Source: a virus. From it: a stretch of 64,000 bases of DNA. Below, piece by piece: positions 18,262-28,636 of this stretch. A program made the position numbers and the translations under genes. Each line of letters opens with the position of its first letter. Position 1 is the stretch's first letter. The notes beneath the pieces were generated by a model. The model was given only the letters and a program-made list of their open reading frames with translations, made no database searches and was not told the DNA's origin. The stretch covers positions 1,842 to 65,841 of IMG/VR virus record IMGVR_UViG_3300028498_000052; one strand, written 5' to 3'.

Positions 18262-21240
18262 ATGTCTTACAAAACCGCTAGATTACACAGTATTGTCGTT
18301 AATTCTAGCTTATTCGAACAAGATATATTTTATCCCCTTGCATTTTCTGAAACGAGCAGTATCAATCAAAACGATAATATTTTTATACTAGTGTTTATTA
18401 AAATATTTTTAGATTCGAACGATTGTTTATCATTAATTAACATGCCTGTATACCTGAGTATACTGTCATCCAATCGCATTGCCACTTCTCGTACGGGACT
18501 GATAAAAGGTGTCAACTATCAGTATTCAGACGGTGCCATACATTTCTACACTTTAGAAATTGTCAGTCCCGATTGGCAACTGACTCAATCTATGCATACT
18601 CGTAGTTTCATCAATCAGTCTACCCTCGATATAGTGACGACTATCCTTAGTGACTATGATATAAAGTGGCAAGTCTCTGAGGTGCTACTGTCATCAGAAC
18701 GCTTGTCTGAAACGCTATCGATACGCACGCAGTCAGATATTAGTGACTATGACTTTGTCACTGGATTGCTTGCTGATATTGGGGTATCTACCTTGTGGGT
18801 ATCGAGTGATTCAGTTGATGATATTGGAACATGGTTGTTAGTCGGTGGGTTGGATGAAAGCGAGCTGTTACCACTAAGCTACAGCTATGCTCAATCCTCA
18901 GTACAATCCGGTCAAGACAATGTGAATACGCTACAAATGAGTAATCAGCAGCTTGGTAGTCATACGGTGGTGGTCCGAGCAGATGGTTTGGCCAATGATA
19001 CTATCTATGAAGGGCAAGCGATTGATGACTCGCTTTTAGCAATTGATGACATTACAGTATTACTGGCGGCACCGTCTCGAGTGAGTAGTGATGAATCCGC
19101 AAATCAAATGGCTCAGCAATGGATACGGGCAAATCGTTGCCTGCGAGAAACCTATCAAGCCAGTGGCGCGATGCGTGGTCTTTGCATCGGTAGCCCAGTT
19201 GATATCTGTGATATACCATCGATTGGCCGCTTAACGACTCGCTGTATAGATACCATCACAATCGGCATTGAACCCGATAACGACAGTACCTCCTATCATC
19301 ATAAGGCGTTTATCAAAAAGTGGTTAGAGCAGACTGTACAATGCATGCAAAACTATGTCGTGAATACTACTGACATAATTCTTCCCCAAAATGCCTATGA
19401 CATTGCCTGTGATACGGGTATTTGGGTAACAGCAACCCTACTTGACTCCACTATTCCTTACTGTCCTTATCCCAGTCATCTGTCGTTGGTCAGTAGTACC
19501 TATCAAGGTCTTGCTCAAGCACGTACCAGTAACATTAGTGCACCCACCTACGACTCTCGCATCACTGACGACAACCTACACCAAACCATCTCTACTCCTG
19601 TTTGGTCAGGGATTAGCCCTCACGATGATGGCACTACTCCGCCCCTACGCTCATTACAATTGTCATCAGGTGCGACACATGGTTGGCAGTTTGCCCCGCG
19701 TATGGGACAACCAGTGTTGCTTAGTCATTGGTATGGGGATATTGACAGTCCGGTGATTAGCCGGTCACTGTTTGACGGTATCGGTATGGGCGATACGGAT
19801 GAGCATGACATCACTACCCGTGATGCTGGCTTATCTAACAGGCACAACGTACAAGGCGGCACCTCCCCTAGATGGCATGGCAATGGTTTGGGACACTCGC
19901 AAATCAGTGAGGACGATATTCACAGCGGCTGGATATCGGGGATTGCTCAGTATGGACTAAGCGCTGAGTCTGAGGTGACGTTCAGCTTTGATGATACGCC
20001 AAACAAAGTAGGGCTACAGTGGACGGTCAATACTGGGTCAAGTGCAAACAGCGAAAATCCAACCATCACAGAGATGGCGACCTTTGCGCCCGATGAACAC
20101 GTAGTAGAGCTTGGCGTCTTGCGGCATCGTTATAGCAATCATCAATCAAGTGACCGCGGTCAAGGGATTAATGTCGCCACCGATCACGGACTACAGGTCA
20201 GTGGCGATACAGGTGTGTTGCTCTCAACCTTTGGACTCAGACACTCACAATCAGAGCATGAGTCGGCGTGGGTCAATGATGCTGGACAACAGCAACTTAA
20301 AATAGGCGCTGAGTTGGGTGAGACGCTAAAAGAGGCCAAACAAGCACATCTACAATCGATACAGACTCTGAATAATGTGAATCAATCGATAAATGCCTTT
20401 AAAACCACGGCACAAGTGATAGATGAGACACTCAATGCGGAAGTCTTAGGTGCACCCGATGTGATGCTGGTCAGTCGTGACAGTATTCTTGCGTCTGCCA
20501 ATAATACTCTATGGACAGCGAAGACGATTGTCAGACAATCAGGCAGCACACAGTCAGATGTGGTGGCAGGCAATTATACGCTGACGGCAGATACAATTGA
20601 CTTGCTCTCAGGTATTGGCGGTCAAGCAAATCTATCAGGTCTACATATCAGTGCCAATACCAAACCTGTGGCGATACAAGCGCAAGGTGGTGAGTTGCAG
20701 TTGCACTCTCAGCAAAGTATGACAATTGGTAGTGAGTCGGGACCCGTAAATGTGTCGAGTCCGAAGCGCATCAAGCTGCAAACATCAGCAGGGGCTTCGA
20801 TTACGATTGATGATAGCGGGATTAAGCTGGTTTGTCCGGGGACGATTAAGGTGCAGGCGGTGAAGAAAAAGTTGATGGGTGGTGCGAAAGCCAATTACTC
20901 GCTGCCAATGATGCCGGAGACTATTCCGCTCTTTAGTAATAAGCTTGATGTTTATGACTTGTTTTATCATGCTGACTTTAATGAAGTAGATTACGTAGCA
21001 ATGTTAGATGATGGTCAGATAGTAGAAGGAACATTAGATGAACATGGGCGGACTAATAGATTGATCTCTATGAAGTCTGAAGAAGCTGAAGTATTAGTAG
21101 GATATCTGAATAATTGGAGTATAGAAATTGAAGATGATGATGATGATGATGAAAATGAAGAGGTAGAATTCGAATATTCAGAAGAATGCGCTTGCCAAGC
21201 GCCAGAAGAAGATATCGATCTTTTAGAGGATGAAGAATAA
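18262..21240 (+). CDS. vgrG: Second VgrG, with DUF2345, a C-terminal extension domain and an acidic tail
   Basis: RTQSDISDYDFVTGLLA; GWQFAPRMGQPVL; SPKRIKLQTSAGASITID..GI..CPG.I.V; C-terminal Y...LDDGQIVEGTLDEHGRT.R and an Asp/Glu-rich tail. Confidence 0.88.
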   Translation: MSYKTARLHSIVVNSSLFEQDIFYPLAFSETSSINQNDNIFILVFIKIFLDSNDCLSLINMPVYLSILSSNRIATSRTGLIKGVNYQYSDGAIHFYTLEIVSPDWQLTQSMHTRSFINQSTLDIVTTILSDYDIKWQVSEVLLSSERLSETLSIRTQSDISDYDFVTGLLADIGVSTLWVSSDSVDDIGTWLLVGGLDESELLPLSYSYAQSSVQSGQDNVNTLQMSNQQLGSHTVVVRADGLANDTIYEGQAIDDSLLAIDDITVLLAAPSRVSSDESANQMAQQWIRANRCLRETYQASGAMRGLCIGSPVDICDIPSIGRLTTRCIDTITIGIEPDNDSTSYHHKAFIKKWLEQTVQCMQNYVVNTTDIILPQNAYDIACDTGIWVTATLLDSTIPYCPYPSHLSLVSSTYQGLAQARTSNISAPTYDSRITDDNLHQTISTPVWSGISPHDDGTTPPLRSLQLSSGATHGWQFAPRMGQPVLLSHWYGDIDSPVISRSLFDGIGMGDTDEHDITTRDAGLSNRHNVQGGTSPRWHGNGLGHSQISEDDIHSGWISGIAQYGLSAESEVTFSFDDTPNKVGLQWTVNTGSSANSENPTITEMATFAPDEHVVELGVLRHRYSNHQSSDRGQGINVATDHGLQVSGDTGVLLSTFGLRHSQSEHESAWVNDAGQQQLKIGAELGETLKEAKQAHLQSIQTLNNVNQSINAFKTTAQVIDETLNAEVLGAPDVMLVSRDSILASANNTLWTAKTIVRQSGSTQSDVVAGNYTLTADTIDLLSGIGGQANLSGLHISANTKPVAIQAQGGELQLHSQQSMTIGSESGPVNVSSPKRIKLQTSAGASITIDDSGIKLVCPGTIKVQAVKKKLMGGAKANYSLPMMPETIPLFSNKLDVYDLFYHADFNEVDYVAMLDDGQIVEGTLDEHGRTNRLISMKSEEAEVLVGYLNNWSIEIEDDDDDDENEEVEFEYSEECACQAPEEDIDLLEDEE

Positions 21241-23765
21241 TGTCAAATACTCAAAAAAAGATCACTGCATGGTTCATATTGCTTGATGCGAAAAGCAAAC
21301 TTCTAAAAAATATTGAATATAAGGTCACAGCAGTTAACAATAATAATGAGGAGGAACACGTAGTTAAAGGTAAAACTAATAGTAAAGGTGCAACTTATGA
21401 ATTTATCAAACCAGTTAATACTGTGCTTTACCTATATATAAAAACTGGCACTAAAGACTTTGAAAAAGTTGCAAAGATACTACTACCTCAAACTAAGAGA
21501 AGCCAACTTAAAATTAGAGCTAGAGTTAGTGCGATTTTGATTGACTCAAAACTGAAGAAATATGGCAACGAAGCAGGTAGTATCAAGCGTAAAGATCATA
21601 AAATAGTTAAAGGCGATACATTGGAAAGTATAGCCAAAAAGTATAATACAGATATCACGCAGTTAAAGATTTTGAATCCAAAAATAAAAAACATTCATAA
21701 GATATTCGCAGGTGATTGGTTAAAAGTTCCAATGCAAATTGGTGATGGTGGCAAAGAGTCGGAAGATAAGTCCTCTCCATCAGTTTCGAAAAATCCGACT
21801 GCGAAAAAAAATAAAGATAATGAATCTAAAGATTCAAAGCAACCTTGGTATAAAAAAACTTGGGATAGTATTAAAGATGTTACTGATAAAGCAGATGCTG
21901 CAATTGACAAAACTGAAGAAGTCATTAAACAGAGTCAGCAAAAAATAATAAATGGAACTCTTGATGTGAAGGAACATGTAGCTGATGCAAGCGGAAAGTT
22001 ACATGGCACCCTATTTGGTGATAATACCAAGCCATTTAAGAACAATGACACGAATAACTCCTCCAAAACCGAGTCATCAGATAGTAAAAGCAAATCTAAC
22101 GAGCCACAGCTAGATATTAAGAAGGAAGTAGGTAACAACCAAAAAGGCAATCCTGCTGAACAAATTACTTATGATAGTGATACTACGGTTTACCATATTT
22201 ATCATGATGGGCATATAGAGCGTGCTAACAGGCAAGCCGTTGGGTATGCCGCATTTATCTATCACGATGAAAGTGGTTCTAAGCATTTTCTAGGAAAAAC
22301 TAAATACTTAAAAATACCACGTTACGGCGGAGGTGGCCATATATACTTGGTAAATATTGGCGGAGATAAAAAGAGCAACGGTATTGATGATAACAACCTA
22401 TCAAATATAGAAAAAGAAAAAAGGTTGTCTAAATACAGGAAAGGTAATATAGGCTACAGCATATATATGAACTCTCAGCAGTATCAGCGCTATTATCTGT
22501 CTGGAGTTGCTATGGCTACATTTTTAGGTGCTCTATGCAAATTGGGCTATGATGACATTTCTTTTAATGGAGCTAGTAAAGTTGACGGAGGCCCTGGTCC
22601 TAGTAGCAGTCATACCAATGGCAAATGTATCGATGTGAGATATCTTCGAAAAGACAGAAAAGCGCTAGAAATGATATTGAATAATCACAGCCATGACTCT
22701 CAATACGATCACGATAGAAACTTAAAACTTGTTAATACTCTCTATGAGTTTGGATGGGGTAAAAGAAAAAGACCTAACGATTCTATCGTAAAAATGCTTA
22801 GCGTATATTTCACTAACTCTCAAGCAGGGATAAATAAAAGTTATATTTTACCTCATTGCGGTCCTTATAAAGGACACGATAATCACCTTCATCTTCAGGG
22901 TTTAGTCGCGAATATAAAAGATATCGATGTTATTCACAAGACTTCTAGAAGTGAGACAGGTATATGCTCATGCAATACAGACCTCACGTTAGAACAGTTA
23001 CGAAAAATATGTACAGTAAGAGATAAATCAACTTTAGAAAGTATTTTACCTCATTTAAATAAGACTTTAAAAAACTATAAAATCACTACATGTGTAAGAA
23101 AAGCTCATTTTATAGCTCAATTAGCGCATGAATCTGCTGAATTTAAATATAACGAAGAAATTGGCACTACAGATGCTCATTATGGAGGTTATAAAGGAAG
23201 AGGATATATTCAAATATCGCTAAAAGGTGCTTACGAATCTTACGGAAAATACGTAAAGGTTAATTTCTTAGGTTCAAATAACGTTAAAATGGCACAATTG
23301 CCTTACTCTATTGATTCGGCTGGATGGTTTTGGACTAAATTTAAGTGGAAAGACCTAAATGAGTTAGCTGACAAGAATGATATTATTTGCATCAGTGCTA
23401 TCGTAAACGGTGGATTTAACGGATTTGATGATAGGTTAAAATACTTTAAACGTGGTGTCGAGAGTCTTAATTTGAAATCTTGTAAAAACTTAAATTCCAT
23501 CAACCTTACCCATTTAACTACTTTTAACTTTCCTGATAGCATGGTAACGGAAATGATTGGTGAGAGCTTTGGTTGGGGTTTATGGCATGATCCTGCTAAG
23601 AATAAAAGTGGCGTTACAAAAAGTGTAGTAGTTGCAAAAGAAGGATATGTTCACTTTATAAGACTAGCTAATAAAAAAGGTAGCTTCGGAAAAAGTGAAA
23701 AACGTTATGGATGGACATATGATGATGCTGTAAATTATGCTAAGCAAAGGGTAGATAAGTTATGA
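21240..23765 (+). CDS. T6SS peptidoglycan-hydrolase effector: delivery domain, LysM, zinc (LAS-type M15/M74-like) peptidase, GH19 lysozyme-like domain
   Basis: LysM HKIVKGDTLESIAKKYN..L..LNP; SHTNGKCID and GHDNHLHL zinc motifs; GH19 HFIAQLAHES, YKGRGYIQI, SAGWFW, NGGFNGFDDR. Confidence 0.85.
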   Translation: MSNTQKKITAWFILLDAKSKLLKNIEYKVTAVNNNNEEEHVVKGKTNSKGATYEFIKPVNTVLYLYIKTGTKDFEKVAKILLPQTKRSQLKIRARVSAILIDSKLKKYGNEAGSIKRKDHKIVKGDTLESIAKKYNTDITQLKILNPKIKNIHKIFAGDWLKVPMQIGDGGKESEDKSSPSVSKNPTAKKNKDNESKDSKQPWYKKTWDSIKDVTDKADAAIDKTEEVIKQSQQKIINGTLDVKEHVADASGKLHGTLFGDNTKPFKNNDTNNSSKTESSDSKSKSNEPQLDIKKEVGNNQKGNPAEQITYDSDTTVYHIYHDGHIERANRQAVGYAAFIYHDESGSKHFLGKTKYLKIPRYGGGGHIYLVNIGGDKKSNGIDDNNLSNIEKEKRLSKYRKGNIGYSIYMNSQQYQRYYLSGVAMATFLGALCKLGYDDISFNGASKVDGGPGPSSSHTNGKCIDVRYLRKDRKALEMILNNHSHDSQYDHDRNLKLVNTLYEFGWGKRKRPNDSIVKMLSVYFTNSQAGINKSYILPHCGPYKGHDNHLHLQGLVANIKDIDVIHKTSRSETGICSCNTDLTLEQLRKICTVRDKSTLESILPHLNKTLKNYKITTCVRKAHFIAQLAHESAEFKYNEEIGTTDAHYGGYKGRGYIQISLKGAYESYGKYVKVNFLGSNNVKMAQLPYSIDSAGWFWTKFKWKDLNELADKNDIICISAIVNGGFNGFDDRLKYFKRGVESLNLKSCKNLNSINLTHLTTFNFPDSMVTEMIGESFGWGLWHDPAKNKSGVTKSVVVAKEGYVHFIRLANKKGSFGKSEKRYGWTYDDAVNYAKQRVDKL

Positions 23766-24967
23766 TGCTAAATAAAATTTTGTTTATATTAATATCTACT
23801 TTATTGGTAGGCACAGGCTGTAATCTATCCACTGACTCTTCAGCTAATGATAGCTCATCTTCTAGTAACAACTTATCTTTTTCAATTAGCAGTCAAAATG
23901 TAAAATCAATATCCCATTCTCAAAAACCACCTGAAAAGAAATTACTATGTCTAATGGATAATAGTAAATCAATAAGTACCTACTATGATCAGAACCTTGA
24001 AGAATTAAAAATAAATGGTTATAGCACATTCACATTGGAAAGTATTAATGAGATAGAAACAAGTGAGACTCGCCCTCATGAGTTCACTCGTATATATAAG
24101 AATAAACAAGGATACATAGCAACATTAATGTCTCAAAGTTTTATTAGACGTTTAGAAATAACGAATAAAAGAAACCAAACTAAATCATATTCATTTGATT
24201 CTGGATTAGAATGCAACACTCTGCCAAATAGTAAATATTCAACCTATATAGTTAGTGTGGATAAAGCTTTCATCTATAAACAACCTTATCTTGAAAATAA
24301 GACTTCCTCGTATTTCATAGCAGGTGATGAGATTAAGGTGCTATCTACTGAAAAAAATTGGATACAAACATCTTATTTAAAAGGCTCAAAGAAAGGCTGG
24401 TTACGTCTCAACGATCTTAAAGCTCTAAAAAACTTAGACTTAACTGATGATAAAATACAAGATAGACCTGAAGAAATCCGAGCAGATAACCCTATCAGTT
24501 CCAATCGAGGGAAATATATTATAACTAAAAATGGTATTGGAAATATACCTCTTGGACAAAATTTTGATCCAAATGGATTTGAAAAGTTAGAAAGCCAATT
24601 AGAGGGTGTTGATAATTGTTTTTTAACTACTTCAAAAAAATATCCTAAATATCAACACTCTTTGTATTTTCAATTTGTCGATAATATTTTCGTAGGCGCT
24701 AGCATCAGTAGTATGGGGGACAATAAAATACCATTTGAGTCATACAATGGCATCAAGATCGGAGATACTACTGAAACTGTAATGAAGTTGCATGATAAGC
24801 CACCAGACGAAATTTTTAATAATATACATTCCGATGAGCCCATATTTATCTACTGGACTGATAGCTCTGAAAAGATAGGCCTGCGCTATGATATTTTGAG
24901 CGAAAAAGTGGTAAGTATAGGGATTCACTATAGCCCATATATTCGTTACTTTGAAGGTTGCGGTTAG
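23762..24967 (+). CDS. Putative periplasmic immunity lipoprotein with an SH3b-like domain
   Basis: 4-nt overlap with the effector stop; signal peptide ending VGTGC; SH3b-like segment FIYKQP...FIAGDEIKVL..EKNWIQTSY....KKGWL. Confidence 0.7.
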   Translation: MMLNKILFILISTLLVGTGCNLSTDSSANDSSSSSNNLSFSISSQNVKSISHSQKPPEKKLLCLMDNSKSISTYYDQNLEELKINGYSTFTLESINEIETSETRPHEFTRIYKNKQGYIATLMSQSFIRRLEITNKRNQTKSYSFDSGLECNTLPNSKYSTYIVSVDKAFIYKQPYLENKTSSYFIAGDEIKVLSTEKNWIQTSYLKGSKKGWLRLNDLKALKNLDLTDDKIQDRPEEIRADNPISSNRGKYIITKNGIGNIPLGQNFDPNGFEKLESQLEGVDNCFLTTSKKYPKYQHSLYFQFVDNIFVGASISSMGDNKIPFESYNGIKIGDTTETVMKLHDKPPDEIFNNIHSDEPIFIYWTDSSEKIGLRYDILSEKVVSIGIHYSPYIRYFEGCG

Positions 24968-25148: not shown

Positions 25149-25183
25149 AAAAAAAATCCGACCACCTAAGTGATCGGATTTTT
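25149..25183. terminator. Terminator hairpin beside the left ssrA 3'-end copy
   Basis: AAAAATCCGA...TCGGATTTTT. Confidence 0.7.
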
Positions 25184-25189
25184 AGTATT

Positions 25190-25211
25190 TGGTGGAGATG
25201 GCGGGAGTTGA
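25190..25211 (-). repeat. att core, copy 1: 3' end of tmRNA (ssrA)
   Basis: TGGTGGAGATGGCGGGAGTTGA is the reverse complement of TCAACTCCCGCCATCTCCACCA, the gammaproteobacterial tmRNA 3' end; repeated exactly at 28481. Confidence 0.88.
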
Positions 25212-25542
25212 TATACTGTGCTACATACATTGATATACAAGGCTTCCAGCATGAAATAAGCTCATGGTGTGTCATAGGTGTGTATGATATATTCAATATT
25301 TGTTTGCTATTATTCTAAATATTGCAGGATAATAAGGTATCTCTAGATACAAATGTTAGTACTTAGTTATTTCAAAGCAGTTTTAGCTGTTATTTATCTT
25401 CTTTAACAAATTGACTATAAAATATTAGGTCTACTAATATTTTATGATTTAAAAGAATAAGTAGTTGATTAGCTTCTCACTATCGATAGATGATATGATT
25501 TTACCCGATACTTAATAAATCTTTTTTAAAGCTAAAAACACT

Positions 25543-26793
25543 ATGACTCAAAATTATACTAATGCTGATCAAAACCAAGCAGAATCTCAAGCTATTATGA
25601 AGTCTGATAAAAATAGTAATAGCCTTACCCTAAAGGGTAAAGGTAGCTTATTGGCATTAACAAATTCTATCATTAGTTCAGCAATAGCCGCACGTAAGGC
25701 TGGTCAATTAGCAGTTGATGATAGCTGGATACAGGAAATATGGGATTGGGCAGATGAATTTGAACTAACTGAAACACAAATACCACGCAATAAAGAAGAT
25801 TTAATAAAACTAGAGTCTTTAAATATTGAAATGTGTCGCTCTGAGGACCTTGAGAACCTTTTGGAAGAGAAAAAAGAGGCAGAGGAATCTCTGAGAGTGG
25901 AAAATGAAAGACTACAAAGAGCGAGGGATATAGGACTACATATTGGTGGGATACCTCCAGAGTTTATAAAAGTACATGACCTGAATAACGAAGTAAGACG
26001 TTTGGAAAGGCTCTTATCTACCACTAATAAAATTAATTCTATACCTGTTGAACTGAGCCATCTCCAGAATCTTATAAAGATTGAACTTCAGAGGGTAGAT
26101 TCTAGTAATTTCTTAAAAAATGCCCAGTCATTTAGTAATTTAAAGACGTTAGTAGCTATGAGATGTAACGTCAGTAATTTTTTCGAGGAAATTTGTCAGC
26201 TGAAACAGTTGACTGATATTATTATTCGTGGATCAGAGATAATAAATATACCTCAGAGCATCCGTCAGCTTAGTAACCTGACTAAACTTAGTATCAATAA
26301 TTGTAAGTCAATAACAATCCATAAAGATATTCATCATCTTAGTAATTTAACCAAACTTAGTATTGATAACTGTAATTCGCTAGAAATTCCTGAAGCTATT
26401 TGTAAACTCATAAATTTAACTGAACTTAATATTACTAATTGTAATTTATCAGAAATTCCTGAAGCTATATTCCAACTCAAAAATTTAAATAAGCTTAACA
26501 TAGCAGGCAATAACATTAGTACATTACCAGAAAATATTAGCAAGTTAAAAGATCTTACTAGCCTCAATATTAGTAATAACTATATTACAACCCTACCCAC
26601 TAGCATGTGTTTGCTTGAAAGTTTAATTTCATTTCATATAGACGTTGGAATTCTTAAAGATTTACCAAATTATGGTTACAATCAAGCGTTAGAAGGATTT
26701 GATATTAAAGTTAATGCAATAAATAACCTTCCTCTAAGTCTTAAATTAATTAAAGAGCATTACTTCCATGGTGAAGAGGACCAGCCTTTCTAA
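25543..26793 (+). CDS. Leucine-rich-repeat protein
   Basis: Repeated LxxLxxLxIxxCxLxEIPxxI units; 69-bp DNA periodicity (26269/26338, 26383/26452). Confidence 0.9.
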   Translation: MTQNYTNADQNQAESQAIMKSDKNSNSLTLKGKGSLLALTNSIISSAIAARKAGQLAVDDSWIQEIWDWADEFELTETQIPRNKEDLIKLESLNIEMCRSEDLENLLEEKKEAEESLRVENERLQRARDIGLHIGGIPPEFIKVHDLNNEVRRLERLLSTTNKINSIPVELSHLQNLIKIELQRVDSSNFLKNAQSFSNLKTLVAMRCNVSNFFEEICQLKQLTDIIIRGSEIINIPQSIRQLSNLTKLSINNCKSITIHKDIHHLSNLTKLSIDNCNSLEIPEAICKLINLTELNITNCNLSEIPEAIFQLKNLNKLNIAGNNISTLPENISKLKDLTSLNISNNYITTLPTSMCLLESLISFHIDVGILKDLPNYGYNQALEGFDIKVNAINNLPLSLKLIKEHYFHGEEDQPF

Positions 26794-26862
26794 TACTACT
26801 ATAGCGATATATATAGTAAAGAAGTAAACCCCTTTTCTTAACTTTTATAATTCTTAAATTGG

Positions 26863-28224
26863 ATGAGTATGCAAACCGAAGCAATATTTGAAGACATCGC
26901 TGAGCGAATTCGCCTTGAGCTGGAGCAAGCGAAGCAAAGCATCTATATTGCTGTCGCTTGGTTTACTAATCGCACTTTATTTAACACGCTTATTGAAAAA
27001 TCAAAAGAGGGTGTCACCGTTCAGTTGATGCTATCAAACGATCACATCAATCAGCAAAGTTATGTCGACTACGACCAATTAAGTGTTGGCAACTCTGCTG
27101 CCTATCTAATCGGTGACGGTAAAACAAACCTTATGCACAATAAGTTTTGTGTGATTGACAGTGATACTGTGATTAATGGCTCTTATAACTGGAGCTATAA
27201 GGCTGAGAAAAATCATGAGAATGTACTGATTACTAAAGGCGATACCATTTTAGCTGAACAATTCATTAGTCAATTTAAGAAAATCCGCAATACCTACTTT
27301 GATCATCAAGATAGCACCCCAGACTTACCACTCGATAAAATCATCAAACGTCTCGAAATTATCAAAAACTACGTTATCCTAGAGGATATAGATGATATTA
27401 CGCGCGAAAACACCAAGCTAAAGACATACGCCTTTCAACAAGACATTGCTGCTATCACCCAAGCTTTACAACAGCATAGCTTTGATACTGCAATTACCCT
27501 CATTGACCAATTCATCAAAAACCATCATGCCTTGGTCGTCTATAAAGATATTGATGTCAAAGCTTTGAAATTAGAGATCCGCCATCTTGAACACCAACTC
27601 AATGCCTACGACAATGAGAAGATTGAATTGGATAAAATGCTTTCAGAATTTCATTACCGTCATACTAATGAGCTCGGAAGCTACATCAGCCGATTACTAC
27701 AATTACGCAAGTTATCTACCAAAGATAATCCTGAAGAGTATGCAGAAGCCGTGCAAGATGAAGAAGACTACAACGAGCAAATTGAAATTGAATCAGAAAA
27801 AATAATTTATGAGCTCGATGAGGAAGAACGCGTAGAGCTAAAGAAGACCTATCGACAAGCCAGTCAAATCTGTCACCCTGATCGTGTTAGTGAAGAGATG
27901 AAAGATATTGCACAAGAGGTTTTTATAAAACTCAACGAAGCCTATGAAAAAAATGATGTCATTGAAGTGCAAGAAATACTGGCGGAGCTAAAGCAAGGTA
28001 TGTTTAAACCTCGCTCAGAAACGGTTAGCAAATCAGAGCAGCTTAAAGCCATTGTTCAGATATTAAAACATAAGATTGAGAAAGTCGAACAAGAGATTTT
28101 TGCGATCAAAAACAGTAAAGACTATCAAACCATCAGTAGTATTAACGATTGGAATGCGTATTTTGAAGAAATAAAAGCACAACTGAAGGAAGAAATTGAT
28201 TACCTTGAGACTAATAATGTATAG
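26863..28224 (+). CDS. PLD-family (single HKD, Nuc-like) nuclease fused to a coiled coil and a DnaJ J-domain
   Basis: IAVAWFT; MHNKFCVID...INGSYNW; LKKTYRQASQICHPDRV...FIKLNEAY (HPD motif). Confidence 0.88.
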   Translation: MSMQTEAIFEDIAERIRLELEQAKQSIYIAVAWFTNRTLFNTLIEKSKEGVTVQLMLSNDHINQQSYVDYDQLSVGNSAAYLIGDGKTNLMHNKFCVIDSDTVINGSYNWSYKAEKNHENVLITKGDTILAEQFISQFKKIRNTYFDHQDSTPDLPLDKIIKRLEIIKNYVILEDIDDITRENTKLKTYAFQQDIAAITQALQQHSFDTAITLIDQFIKNHHALVVYKDIDVKALKLEIRHLEHQLNAYDNEKIELDKMLSEFHYRHTNELGSYISRLLQLRKLSTKDNPEEYAEAVQDEEDYNEQIEIESEKIIYELDEEERVELKKTYRQASQICHPDRVSEEMKDIAQEVFIKLNEAYEKNDVIEVQEILAELKQGMFKPRSETVSKSEQLKAIVQILKHKIEKVEQEIFAIKNSKDYQTISSINDWNAYFEEIKAQLKEEIDYLETNNV

Positions 28225-28393
28225 GTGATTTTATTGATTAGACGCATCTACGGTGCTAACTGAAAATATGTCTTTTTCACTAAATATTTGGCTATTTCCT
28301 GTGTGTAATCCGTGTACGTCAGGTGTGTATTATTACGATATTAATCGTTTTTTTCGTATCTATTGTCCTGAACAAAAACATATTGTAGGTAAT

Positions 28394-28430
28394 AAAAAAC
28401 CCCTCAAAGCGTTGTGCTATAAGGGGTTTT
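28394..28430. terminator. Terminator hairpin beside the second ssrA 3'-end copy
   Basis: AAAACCCCT...AGGGGTTTT. Confidence 0.7.
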
Positions 28431-28480
28431 CGCTTTTAACGTTTGTTACTATTTTATTGCTGGTTTGTTGCTTTTTGTAT

Positions 28481-28507
28481 TGGTGGAGATGGCGGGAGTT
28501 GAACCCG
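28481..28507 (-). repeat. att core, copy 2: 3' end of tmRNA; probable left boundary of the prophage
   Basis: TGGTGGAGATGGCGGGAGTTGAACCCG, followed by arm-like TGTCAA repeats (28610, 28622). Confidence 0.88.
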
Positions 28508-28636
28508 ATATCATCACATTCTATCAAACGCTATCAAATTCATACTTAGTAATATCAATGACTTACGAAAATTGAATGTGATTACGTGTGATAGTGTTTG
28601 ATGGTAGGCTGTCAAAAATCATGTCAAGAATTACGA

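Follow-up and report, generated by a model that had tools for sequence, protein, structure and literature searches.

Defence modules that join a sensor to a nuclease are already known as a kind, and several described systems share parts with the two-gene locus reviewed here. The locus lies in a stretch of 64,000 nucleotides (nt), called the window below, which corresponds to bases 1842-65841 of the 67-kb IMG/VR virus record IMGVR_UViG_3300028498_000052. It consists of two co-oriented genes on the plus strand, 69 nt apart: P0001 encodes a leucine-rich repeat (LRR) protein, and P0002 encodes a protein combining a phospholipase D (PLD) nuclease-like domain with a J-domain, referred to as PLD-J. 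A sequence-only reading of the window, made without database searches, had proposed that the pair might be a sensor-effector antiphage system. Here, we compare the pair with known systems and describe the family to which it belongs, in which the PLD-J protein is a constant hub and the neighbouring partner is exchangeable in fold, nearly all partners opening with a common tag of about 30 residues. On balance we lean, by a modest degree, towards a modular two-part defence system in which tagged binders control a nuclease coupled to the chaperone DnaK, with phages or other mobile elements as the most likely targets.

Nuc (Salmonella pKM101), NucT (Helicobacter pylori) and Zucchini have, like P0002, one HxK(x)4D and one GSxN motif per chain and the same fold. 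They are stand-alone proteins of about 150-200 amino acids (aa), often secreted or membrane-anchored. P0002, unlike them, has no signal peptide and carries 300 further residues comprising a linker, a J-domain and a tail; it also scores far below the NucT equivalog cut-offs (38 versus 297 bits). To our knowledge, all single-HKD nucleases dimerise via the PLD domain, as has been established for Nuc, BfiI and Zucchini, and by analogy the PLD-J protein is probably a homodimer with nuclease activity. A PLD nuclease domain in a defence-island setting, as in P0002, is also found in DrmC of DISARM and MkoB of Mokosh, but these effectors have neither a J-domain nor a tagged binder. Membership in DISARM or Mokosh was ruled out, because the helicase and methylase partners (DrmA, DrmB, DrmMI/II; MkoA) are absent from the islet that holds the pair and the matches cover the PLD domain alone.

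The STAND/NLR-like (signal transduction ATPases with numerous domains/nucleotide-binding leucine-rich repeat) Avs and bNACHT proteins join the same tetratricopeptide repeat (TPR), LRR and WD40 sensor folds to a nuclease, and in them the sensor diversifies while the effector is constant, as here. In the PLD-J system, however, the sensors are separate polypeptides, presumably joined by a short N-terminal tag, and the only ATPase implied is the host DnaK. Membership in the STAND/NLR group was ruled out by scans of both proteins with Pfam, NCBIfam and PADLOC, which found no nucleoside triphosphatase (NTPase) family. One member of the group, bNACHT25, requires the host DnaJ to sense a phage coat protein (PMC12169576), so that the Hsp70 chaperone system is linked to activation of a DNA-degrading defence protein. 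bNACHT25 uses the host's own DnaJ and carries no J-domain, whereas the PLD-J nuclease has a J-domain built in. Shedu has a nuclease core with diverse sensor domains (bioRxiv 10.1101/2023.08.10.552793). It resembles the PLD-J system in having a constant nuclease under interchangeable sensor modules, but its sensors are N-terminal domains fused to a PD-(D/E)xK nuclease, whereas here each sensor has a gene of its own and the nuclease is a PLD enzyme with a J-domain.

Two other arrangements, which have no sequence relation to the pair, offer a "works like" analogy for the tag as a client motif. HscB presents IscU to HscA as a specialised pair of J-protein and client, and in toxin-antitoxin-chaperone (TAC) systems a chaperone-dependent segment is located on the toxin's partner. 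The E. coli cluster of HscC with DjlB/DjlC and YbeQ/YbeT (Sel1) was ruled out as a homologue, since BLASTP of P0002 against DjlB and DjlC gave nothing significant. None of the PADLOC 2.0 models or the Pfam, NCBIfam and PHROG annotations describes a hub-plus-tag arrangement, and the literature searched contained nothing on a PLD-J-domain protein or on the tag; within the scope of these sources, the hub-plus-tag family is probably undescribed. The automatic annotation of the hub is only "phospholipase D-like domain-containing protein", and the PHROG matches extend only over the generic LRR and PLD domains, the families being of unknown function. PADLOC gave weak PLD-domain matches only for P0002 (residues 14-135; DrmC 6.6e-9, MkoB 1.1e-8) and no match for P0001, which agrees with the sequence-only reading in that the pair corresponds to no named system.

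The coordinates of the pair and its parts are collected in Table 1. The true start of P0002 is probably Met3 at 26869, because the homologues and the ESM Atlas record begin there; the intergenic gap would then be 75 nt. An AlphaFold2 (AF2) model and a conservation profile of P0002 were built on 69 relatives with identities down to 28%. Pfam recognises one PLDc_2 domain (residues 19-141, 1.1e-22), and NCBIfam gives sub-threshold NucT matches only (residues 11-141). The PLD fold is modelled with a pLDDT score (predicted local distance difference test) of mostly 87-98 over residues 1-130, with one 10-residue block at 76. Foldseek searches with this domain returned NucT (6ehi), Nuc (1byr), Zucchini and FAM83, with a probability of 1.00 for NucT, Nuc and Zucchini (entries 6ehi, 1byr and 4ggj) and a template-modelling (TM) score, by target, of 0.69-0.75 for NucT/Nuc and 0.55-0.71 for Zucchini. 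The residues H92, K94, D99, G106, S107 and N109 of the HKD and GSxN motifs are each at least 90% conserved, and the same is true of C337, H338, P339 and D340 around the HPD motif. Thus the catalytic site and the Hsp70-activating site are both under selection. The HPD is flanked in the model by helices 320-337 and 344-362. The Pfam DnaJ match of P0002 (residues 323-362, 26.1 bits) lies just below the cut-off of 27.8 bits, and that of a relative, P0265, reaches 32.1 bits; the family profile aligns in hhalign with residues 16-56 of E. coli DnaJ, which cover helix II, HPD and helix III, at 91.9% probability (E 6.9e-7), and the J-domains of auxilin and DnaJ in the PDB match weakly (E 0.017-0.5). 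A single-HKD PLD domain together with a J-domain, as had been read from the letters, is therefore well founded, and from the motif we infer that the J-domain would recruit the host DnaK (Hsp70). A natural fusion of an RNase_T exonuclease with PLD-J (P0369) favours nucleic acid as the substrate.

The region following the PLD domain is also found by itself. In Salmonella (locus L126:6022-7197) and Enterobacter (L217:4998-6167), residues 157-450 of P0002 have a homologue of 391 aa that is annotated as "DnaJ family molecular chaperone" and is without a PLD domain; no match to this stand-alone J-module was found in E. coli genomes. Since such homologues exist, linker, J-domain and tail form an independent module, and it may instead be the PLD part to which the tag relates.

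P0001 is an LRR protein without a catalytic domain, as had been supposed. Pfam recognises LRR families only (LRR_14, 5.7e-21; LRR_8, 1.8e-12), and AF2 (mean pLDDT 79.5) confidently models a solenoid over residues 58-365, into which a helical hairpin is inserted at 100-159; a ladder of strands and helices runs through residues 179-365 at a pLDDT of mostly 83-96, and residues 1-57 have low pLDDT. By inspection, no signal peptide was seen in P0001 or P0002. Residues 26-95 of P0001 show 47-71% identity among diverged relatives versus 27-34% for the LRR parts of the same proteins, and this N-terminal module contains 16 invariant positions between K31 and L93. The hubs of the same strains are 82-86% identical while the LRR parts of their partners reach only those 27-34%, and the number of LRRs varies even among close relatives. 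As far as P0001 is concerned, the conserved N-terminal module, as judged from the alignments, is the solid part.

The LRR is one of several folds found in this position. When the neighbours in 30 genomic PLD-J loci were clustered, four families recurred next to PLD-J, often with overlap of stop and start: TPR, LRR, Fib_succ_major and tryptophan-rich (W-rich) repeat proteins of 400-570 aa without a Pfam match. With WD40 and Sel1 proteins added, the partner folds overall are LRR, TPR, WD40, Fib_succ_major, Sel1 and the unnamed W-rich repeat. Nearly all of these partners open with the same motif of about 30 residues, approximately [ND]xxSL[VI]Pxxxxx[LI]x[RK]VxNSIxITNK[IL]L, of which P0001 has a putative, divergent version, SLTLKGKGSLLALTNSIISSA. 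By Pfam, 50 tagged neighbours from PLD-J loci comprise 11 TPR, 11 Fib_succ_major, about 8 LRR and 2 WD40 proteins, the rest being without a family. In a cross-class test, hidden Markov models (HMMs) of the tag were trained on a single fold class and searched against 4,191 open reading frames (ORFs). The TPR-trained HMM recovered LRR (3.5e-10), Fib_succ_major (1.5e-7) and W-rich (3.5e-5) partners, and the one trained on LRR partners of Bacteroidota recovered Fib_succ_major (4e-8) and TPR (1.4e-7) partners. The tag HMM matches P0001 at positions 24-54 with 19.3 bits, P0001 itself being among the HMM seeds. A signal peptide was ruled out as the nature of the tag, since the Bacteroidota version is charged throughout and the motif starts up to 30 residues in.

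The tag is linked to the hub. An independent set of metagenomic and viral loci (8,682 ORFs, 1.24 Mb) yielded 20 tag matches at E<0.01. Each of them belongs to a PLD-J locus, most adjoin the PLD-J gene or form part of a tandem array next to it, and only one is not co-oriented with it. PLD-only loci, with 88 PLD-only ORFs, gave zero tag matches, and throughout all fetched loci (about 2 Mb) no ORF of 12 bits or more for the tag was found outside a PLD-J locus. The rate of linkage was counted for PLD-J genes with at least 1.2 kb on both sides, a tagged ORF being sought within 3 kb: it was present for 20 of the 24 genes whose products are at least 45% identical to P0002, and in three of the four exceptions there is nonetheless a tag match below the threshold or an LRR or Fib_succ_major gene next to the hub. 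A predicted complex of P0002 with residues 1-100 of P0001 scored 0.19 against a mark of 0.32; this uncontrolled prediction weighs neither for nor against binding.

Several partner genes deserve mention for themselves. The W-rich tagged partners (Table 1) are built of repeats of about 22 residues (W..LS.N..I.WS.ELIE.F.DKWDW), and this repeat family is probably undescribed. In the largest array seen (L154:4232-8974), four tagged genes surround one PLD-J gene, two on either side; Glaesserella has three, in a group of three or four small genes upstream of PLD-J, one of which encodes Sel1 repeats. In Psychrobacter sp. PL19 (L218:4141-6904), inverted copies of IS630 enclose a tagged-type LRR gene, P0134, which has McrBC as a neighbour and is a partner either orphaned or captured by a transposon.

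The PLD-J family comprises 366 clusters (50% identity) at E<=1e-30 in a full scan of 1.84 billion representatives. Nearly all clusters are of 440-480 aa and align end to end, and P0002 likewise aligns over its full length. Full-length relatives are found in Psychrobacter (76-92% identity), Moraxella (51-69%) and Glaesserella parasuis (59%) of the Pasteurellaceae, and in many Bacteroidota and one Ignavibacteria metagenome-assembled genome (34-54%). All the closest protein homologues are from Psychrobacter, and the genome behind the record is Psychrobacter-like. The gene upstream of PLD-J encodes a 96%-identical LRR protein in P. immobilis and a 310-aa LRR protein in Psychrobacter sp. P11G3; in locus L219, two tandem LRR genes precede PLD-J and an integrase adjoins; and LRR partners also flank PLD-J in Moraxella and Bacteroidota. 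Co-occurrence in gene neighbourhoods, which had been suggested as a check, was found, with LRR and PLD-J genes side by side in Psychrobacter, Moraxella and Bacteroidota. Between the window and P. immobilis there is 91% DNA identity over 25464-28215, that is, the two genes and an 80-nt leader, and the flanks differ; in P11G3 the cassette sits 2 Mb from ssrA, the gene for tmRNA. Since the identity is limited to the pair and the sites differ, the pair moves as a unit. In two Psychrobacter loci (L003:5139-6713 and L007:4792-6387), a conserved 429-434-aa protein without a family, transcribed divergently, and a 69-aa XRE-type helix-turn-helix gene lie just upstream of the cassette; these genes are missing from the islet in the window and so are not essential to the pair.

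The cassette is often found in the company of defence genes. The P11G3 locus contains a DRT2 reverse transcriptase and a type I restriction-modification (RM) system, the P. immobilis locus Mks-like genes, Abi_C, an MmeI-type enzyme and T5orf172, and locus L128 a resolvase, DUF3987 and HsdR. The neighbour types recognised by PADLOC are SIR2 (three times), type I and IIG enzymes, Hhe/PDC-S37, DRT2, PDC-S02, PDC-S71 and ShosA. In another locus (L132:2-12711), a distant PLD-J gene (32% identity) has a 1295-aa PDC-S37/Hhe-like helicase on one side and, on the other, a vWA-PP2C-kinase triad together with DUF4407 and two GmrSD genes. Pedobacter likewise has a vWA gene of this kind after PLD-J (L034:9364-10341), and this may be a second type of partner for the hub.

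An outline of how such a system could work is as follows. The hub would be a single-HKD nuclease of the Nuc/NucT type, probably dimeric via its PLD domain, in which a long helical linker joins the nuclease to the J-domain, and the J-domain would bring in the host DnaK. One to four neighbouring genes would supply binding scaffolds that are exchangeable in fold and have the tag of about 30 residues in common. The tag may dock the binder on the hub, or may be the peptide passed by the J-domain to DnaK, and the nuclease would thereby be held in check. When the variable scaffold captures a ligand derived from an invader, remodelling driven by the ATP cycle of DnaK would alter the contact of the tag, and the nuclease would be freed to cut DNA. 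The defence reading follows from the conservation of the motifs, the exclusive linkage of tag and hub, the fast evolution of the binder, the mobility of the pair and its defence-island company; it is from these that we infer the function as a whole, including physical binding, DnaK dependence, trigger, substrate and defence phenotype. The sensor-effector idea of the sequence-only reading thus survives in part: the conserved module and the defence islands speak for it, but the LRR protein turns out to be one of at least six binder folds with a common tag, and the conserved J-domain implies that Hsp70/DnaK takes part in the mechanism. A bolder form of the proposal is doubtful, though possible: a new Hsp70-powered innate immune architecture, in which the effector is a J-domain nuclease, the tag is a universal plug for swappable and stackable LRR, TPR, WD40 and lectin-like scaffolds, and DnaK replaces the NTPase switch of STAND proteins.

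The same chaperone features could be read in another way, as a chaperone guard of the toxin-antitoxin-chaperone kind, with the PLD-J protein as the toxin and the tagged partner as a DnaK-dependent inhibitor; the toxin would fire when infection overloads or hijacks DnaK, and no phage molecule would be recognised by the repeats. In its favour, the conserved HPD shows coupling to Hsp70 to be under selection, and the tag region is predicted to be flexible, like the segment expected of an Hsp70 client. Tight coupling of the genes, with stop and start often overlapping, would suit it, and bNACHT25 offers a precedent for sensing a phage indirectly through DnaJ (PMC12169576). It leaves unexplained, however, why six ligand-binding folds are swapped and diversify rapidly when an antitoxin needs only a constant fold, and why up to four different partners are found at one locus. 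We regard it as an unlikely account and prefer that of tagged binders controlling a DnaK-coupled nuclease.

Several observations weigh against this preferred account. Among distant PLD-J genes (<45% identity), only 6 of 20 have a detectable tagged neighbour. HMMs trained without Moraxellaceae sequences miss the tag of P0001, and the reverse search is weak (best E 0.11), so that it is by position, alignment and context that the Psychrobacter tag is equated with that of Bacteroidota. Among partners unrelated in fold, tag identity does not follow hub identity significantly (Spearman rho 0.12, which 73 of 500 permutations reach). No tagged partner was found near the stand-alone J-module homologues in Salmonella and Enterobacter, and the tagged LRR gene of PL19 is an orphan in a genome without a PLD-J gene. 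A Rickettsia phospholipase D is among the closest PLD relatives (top fold matches), and the substrate of PLD-J may be a lipid. Strong PADLOC matches were found in about 12 of the 58 nearest neighbours of at least 200 aa (21 loci), a count without a matched control, so that the enrichment in defence genes is qualitative only. Some loci lie among housekeeping genes, namely fmt and rsmB in Glaesserella and a topoisomerase and a ligase elsewhere.

This last point bears on whether the system serves immunity at all. The hub might instead be a specialised co-chaperone/nuclease with adaptors that works for the cell itself, for example in DNA uptake or processing like NucT, or in nucleoprotein turnover, and the islands would be simply where accessory genes gather. 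That its best structural and NCBIfam matches are NucT and Nuc, and that the stand-alone J-module homologues occur in ordinary chromosomal contexts, would fit this as well as the housekeeping surroundings do. A cellular function is not what one would expect, however, of genes that are patchy across phyla with 50-69% identity between phyla, are missing from a close relative, occupy differing sites in related strains with cassette-like movement, and repeatedly adjoin RM, DRT, SIR2, Abi and GmrSD genes. We consider it quite improbable.

The position of the pair in the window raises two further alternatives, both concerned with its neighbours. P0001 and P0002 are the sole cargo of a 3.3-kb islet bounded by an exact 23-nt direct repeat, TTGGTGGAGATGGCGGGAGTTGA, for which 0 occurrences are expected by chance. 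No supported gene besides the pair was found between the two copies, so that the pair is the whole cargo, as had been noted, and no integrase of its own was found among the islet ORFs. The tmRNA gene of Psychrobacter sp. P11G3 (tag peptide ANDETYALAA; L214:1164-1522) ends in the same 22 nt, and 26 nt found at the proximal copy also stand beside a related cassette on a metagenome contig (L177). Because the repeats equal the 3' end of tmRNA, they are copies of the ssrA attachment site (att), read on the opposite strand. To the right of the pair lie three TPR paralogues and a prophage. Neither repeat has an intact tmRNA or tRNA gene, and the rest of the record holds only a prophage tRNA-Gln; the intact ssrA is therefore placed beyond the prophage and outside the 67-kb record. 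By their sequence, islet and prophage are insertions stacked at ssrA, and as the islet has no integrase of its own, that of the neighbouring phage may move it. A listed 98-aa ORF with a GTG start (28253-28549) matches no family and extends over both the terminator-like hairpin and the att repeat; in all likelihood it is no gene. That hairpin was not called by a consensus terminator scan.

It may thus be asked whether the islet is a moron of the prophage or of a satellite, that is, cargo of the ssrA-integrated phage next to it or of a satellite mobilised by that phage, serving for example superinfection exclusion or degradation of host DNA. Its place between two ssrA att core copies with a prophage adjoining, the viral classification of the record, the want of an integrase and a full-length homologue on one other IMG/VR contig (L062) could all be understood in this way. 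Against it, no full-length PLD-J match was found in the 50,697 phage genomes of INPHARED, that contig is the only one of 64 PLD-J matches on IMG/VR viral contigs that is full length, and other genomes carry the cassette in the chromosome, away from prophages. Superinfection exclusion is, besides, a form of defence anyway. A phage moron is thus very unlikely in our estimation.

On its left side, the window contains a minus-strand core of a type VI secretion system (T6SS) including the sheath subunit (TIGR03355, 1e-212), followed on the plus strand by vgrG (18262-21240), an 841-aa LysM/GH19-like gene and a 401-aa gene without a family. The 401-aa ORF (23762-24967) overlaps the stop of the LysM/GH19-like gene and has no match in Pfam, NCBIfam or PADLOC; by position it is a candidate immunity protein for the LysM/GH19-like effector. 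Immunity proteins of Tle5 are Sel1-repeat proteins, and the pair could accordingly be imagined as a T6SS effector-immunity pair of the upstream vgrG cluster, a Tle5-like phospholipase with a repeat protein for immunity. On the same strand, 0.6-7 kb upstream of the pair, are vgrG and the LysM/GH19 gene, which looks like an effector, and Glaesserella has Sel1 partners. An att copy and the ssrA terminator, however, stand between the pair and the vgrG operon; P0002 has only one HKD, where Tle5 has two, and neither protein has a signal peptide; a J-domain works in the cytoplasm of the producer; and the annotated homologous loci are all without T6SS genes. Membership in the Tle5/Tli5 group was ruled out on these grounds, and we give a T6SS origin almost no credence.

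Table 1. Positions of the pair, its parts and its boundaries in the window, and of the W-rich partners in other loci.
Feature	Position	Strand	Basis or remarks
Partner gene P0001, LRR protein with putative tag, 416 aa	25543..26793	+	ORF; Pfam LRR families; AF2 solenoid
Conserved N-terminal module of P0001 (aa 24-95): putative tag of about 30 aa (aa 24-54) and LRR N-cap	25612..25827	+	Identity among relatives; tag HMM
Leucine-rich repeats of P0001 (aa ~160-365)	26020..26637	+	Pfam; model ladder; three 69-nt DNA repeat units at 26241-26447 (tandem family D1)
Hub gene P0002, PLD-J protein, 453 aa	26863..28224	+	ORF; Pfam; AF2 mean pLDDT 90.7
Single-HKD PLD nuclease-like domain (aa 1-145)	26863..27297	+	HxK(x)4D aa 92-99 (27136-27159); GSxN aa 106-109; PLDc_2
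Helical linker (aa 157-311)	27331..27795	+	AF2; single helix of about 79 residues, aa 207-285; homologous to N-terminal part of stand-alone enterobacterial J-proteins
J-domain (aa 320-377)	27820..27993	+	HPD aa 338-340 (27874-27882); Pfam, hhalign, PDB profiles
C-terminal helical tail (aa 391-451)	28033..28215	+	AF2 helices 391-417, 419-425, 430-451; conserved family-wide; also present in the stand-alone J homologues
5' leader of the cassette, conserved; presumed promoter/ribosome-binding site region	25464..25542	+	91% DNA identity to P. immobilis (L007) starts at 25464
Hairpin and T-run, likely terminator of the cassette	28396..28440	+	Inverted repeat I13 at 28396-28430, then TTTTCGCTTTT
Terminator hairpin natively following ssrA	25152..25183	-	14-bp stem and T-run; inverted repeat I12; adjoins the tmRNA-end copy on its 3' side; outer (distal) limit of the array of insertions at ssrA
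Distal 23-nt repeat copy (reverse complement of tmRNA 3' end)	25189..25211	.	Exact repeat; left islet boundary
Proximal 23-nt tmRNA-end repeat copy	28480..28502	.	Right islet boundary and left edge of the prophage region
W-rich tagged partners	L025:1519-2703, L027:3633-5339, L028:3854-5287, L030:9368-10864, L037:9364-10899		

If the proposed defence system is real, it would add a widespread family of defence genes, with hundreds of clusters at 50% identity and full-length members in Pseudomonadota, Bacteroidota and Ignavibacteria. It would also tie immunity directly to the Hsp70 cycle, a connection so far hinted at only by the need of bNACHT25 for DnaJ. The system is small, with two genes in 2.75 kb, and the tag HMM is a simple handle for finding further loci. 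Tag and hub together might be engineered as a small scaffold with which any binder could be linked to a nuclease. For the bacteria that carry it, diversification of the sensor would proceed by plug-in: separate genes with a common docking tag would be exchanged or stacked, and the effector would not have to be rebuilt.

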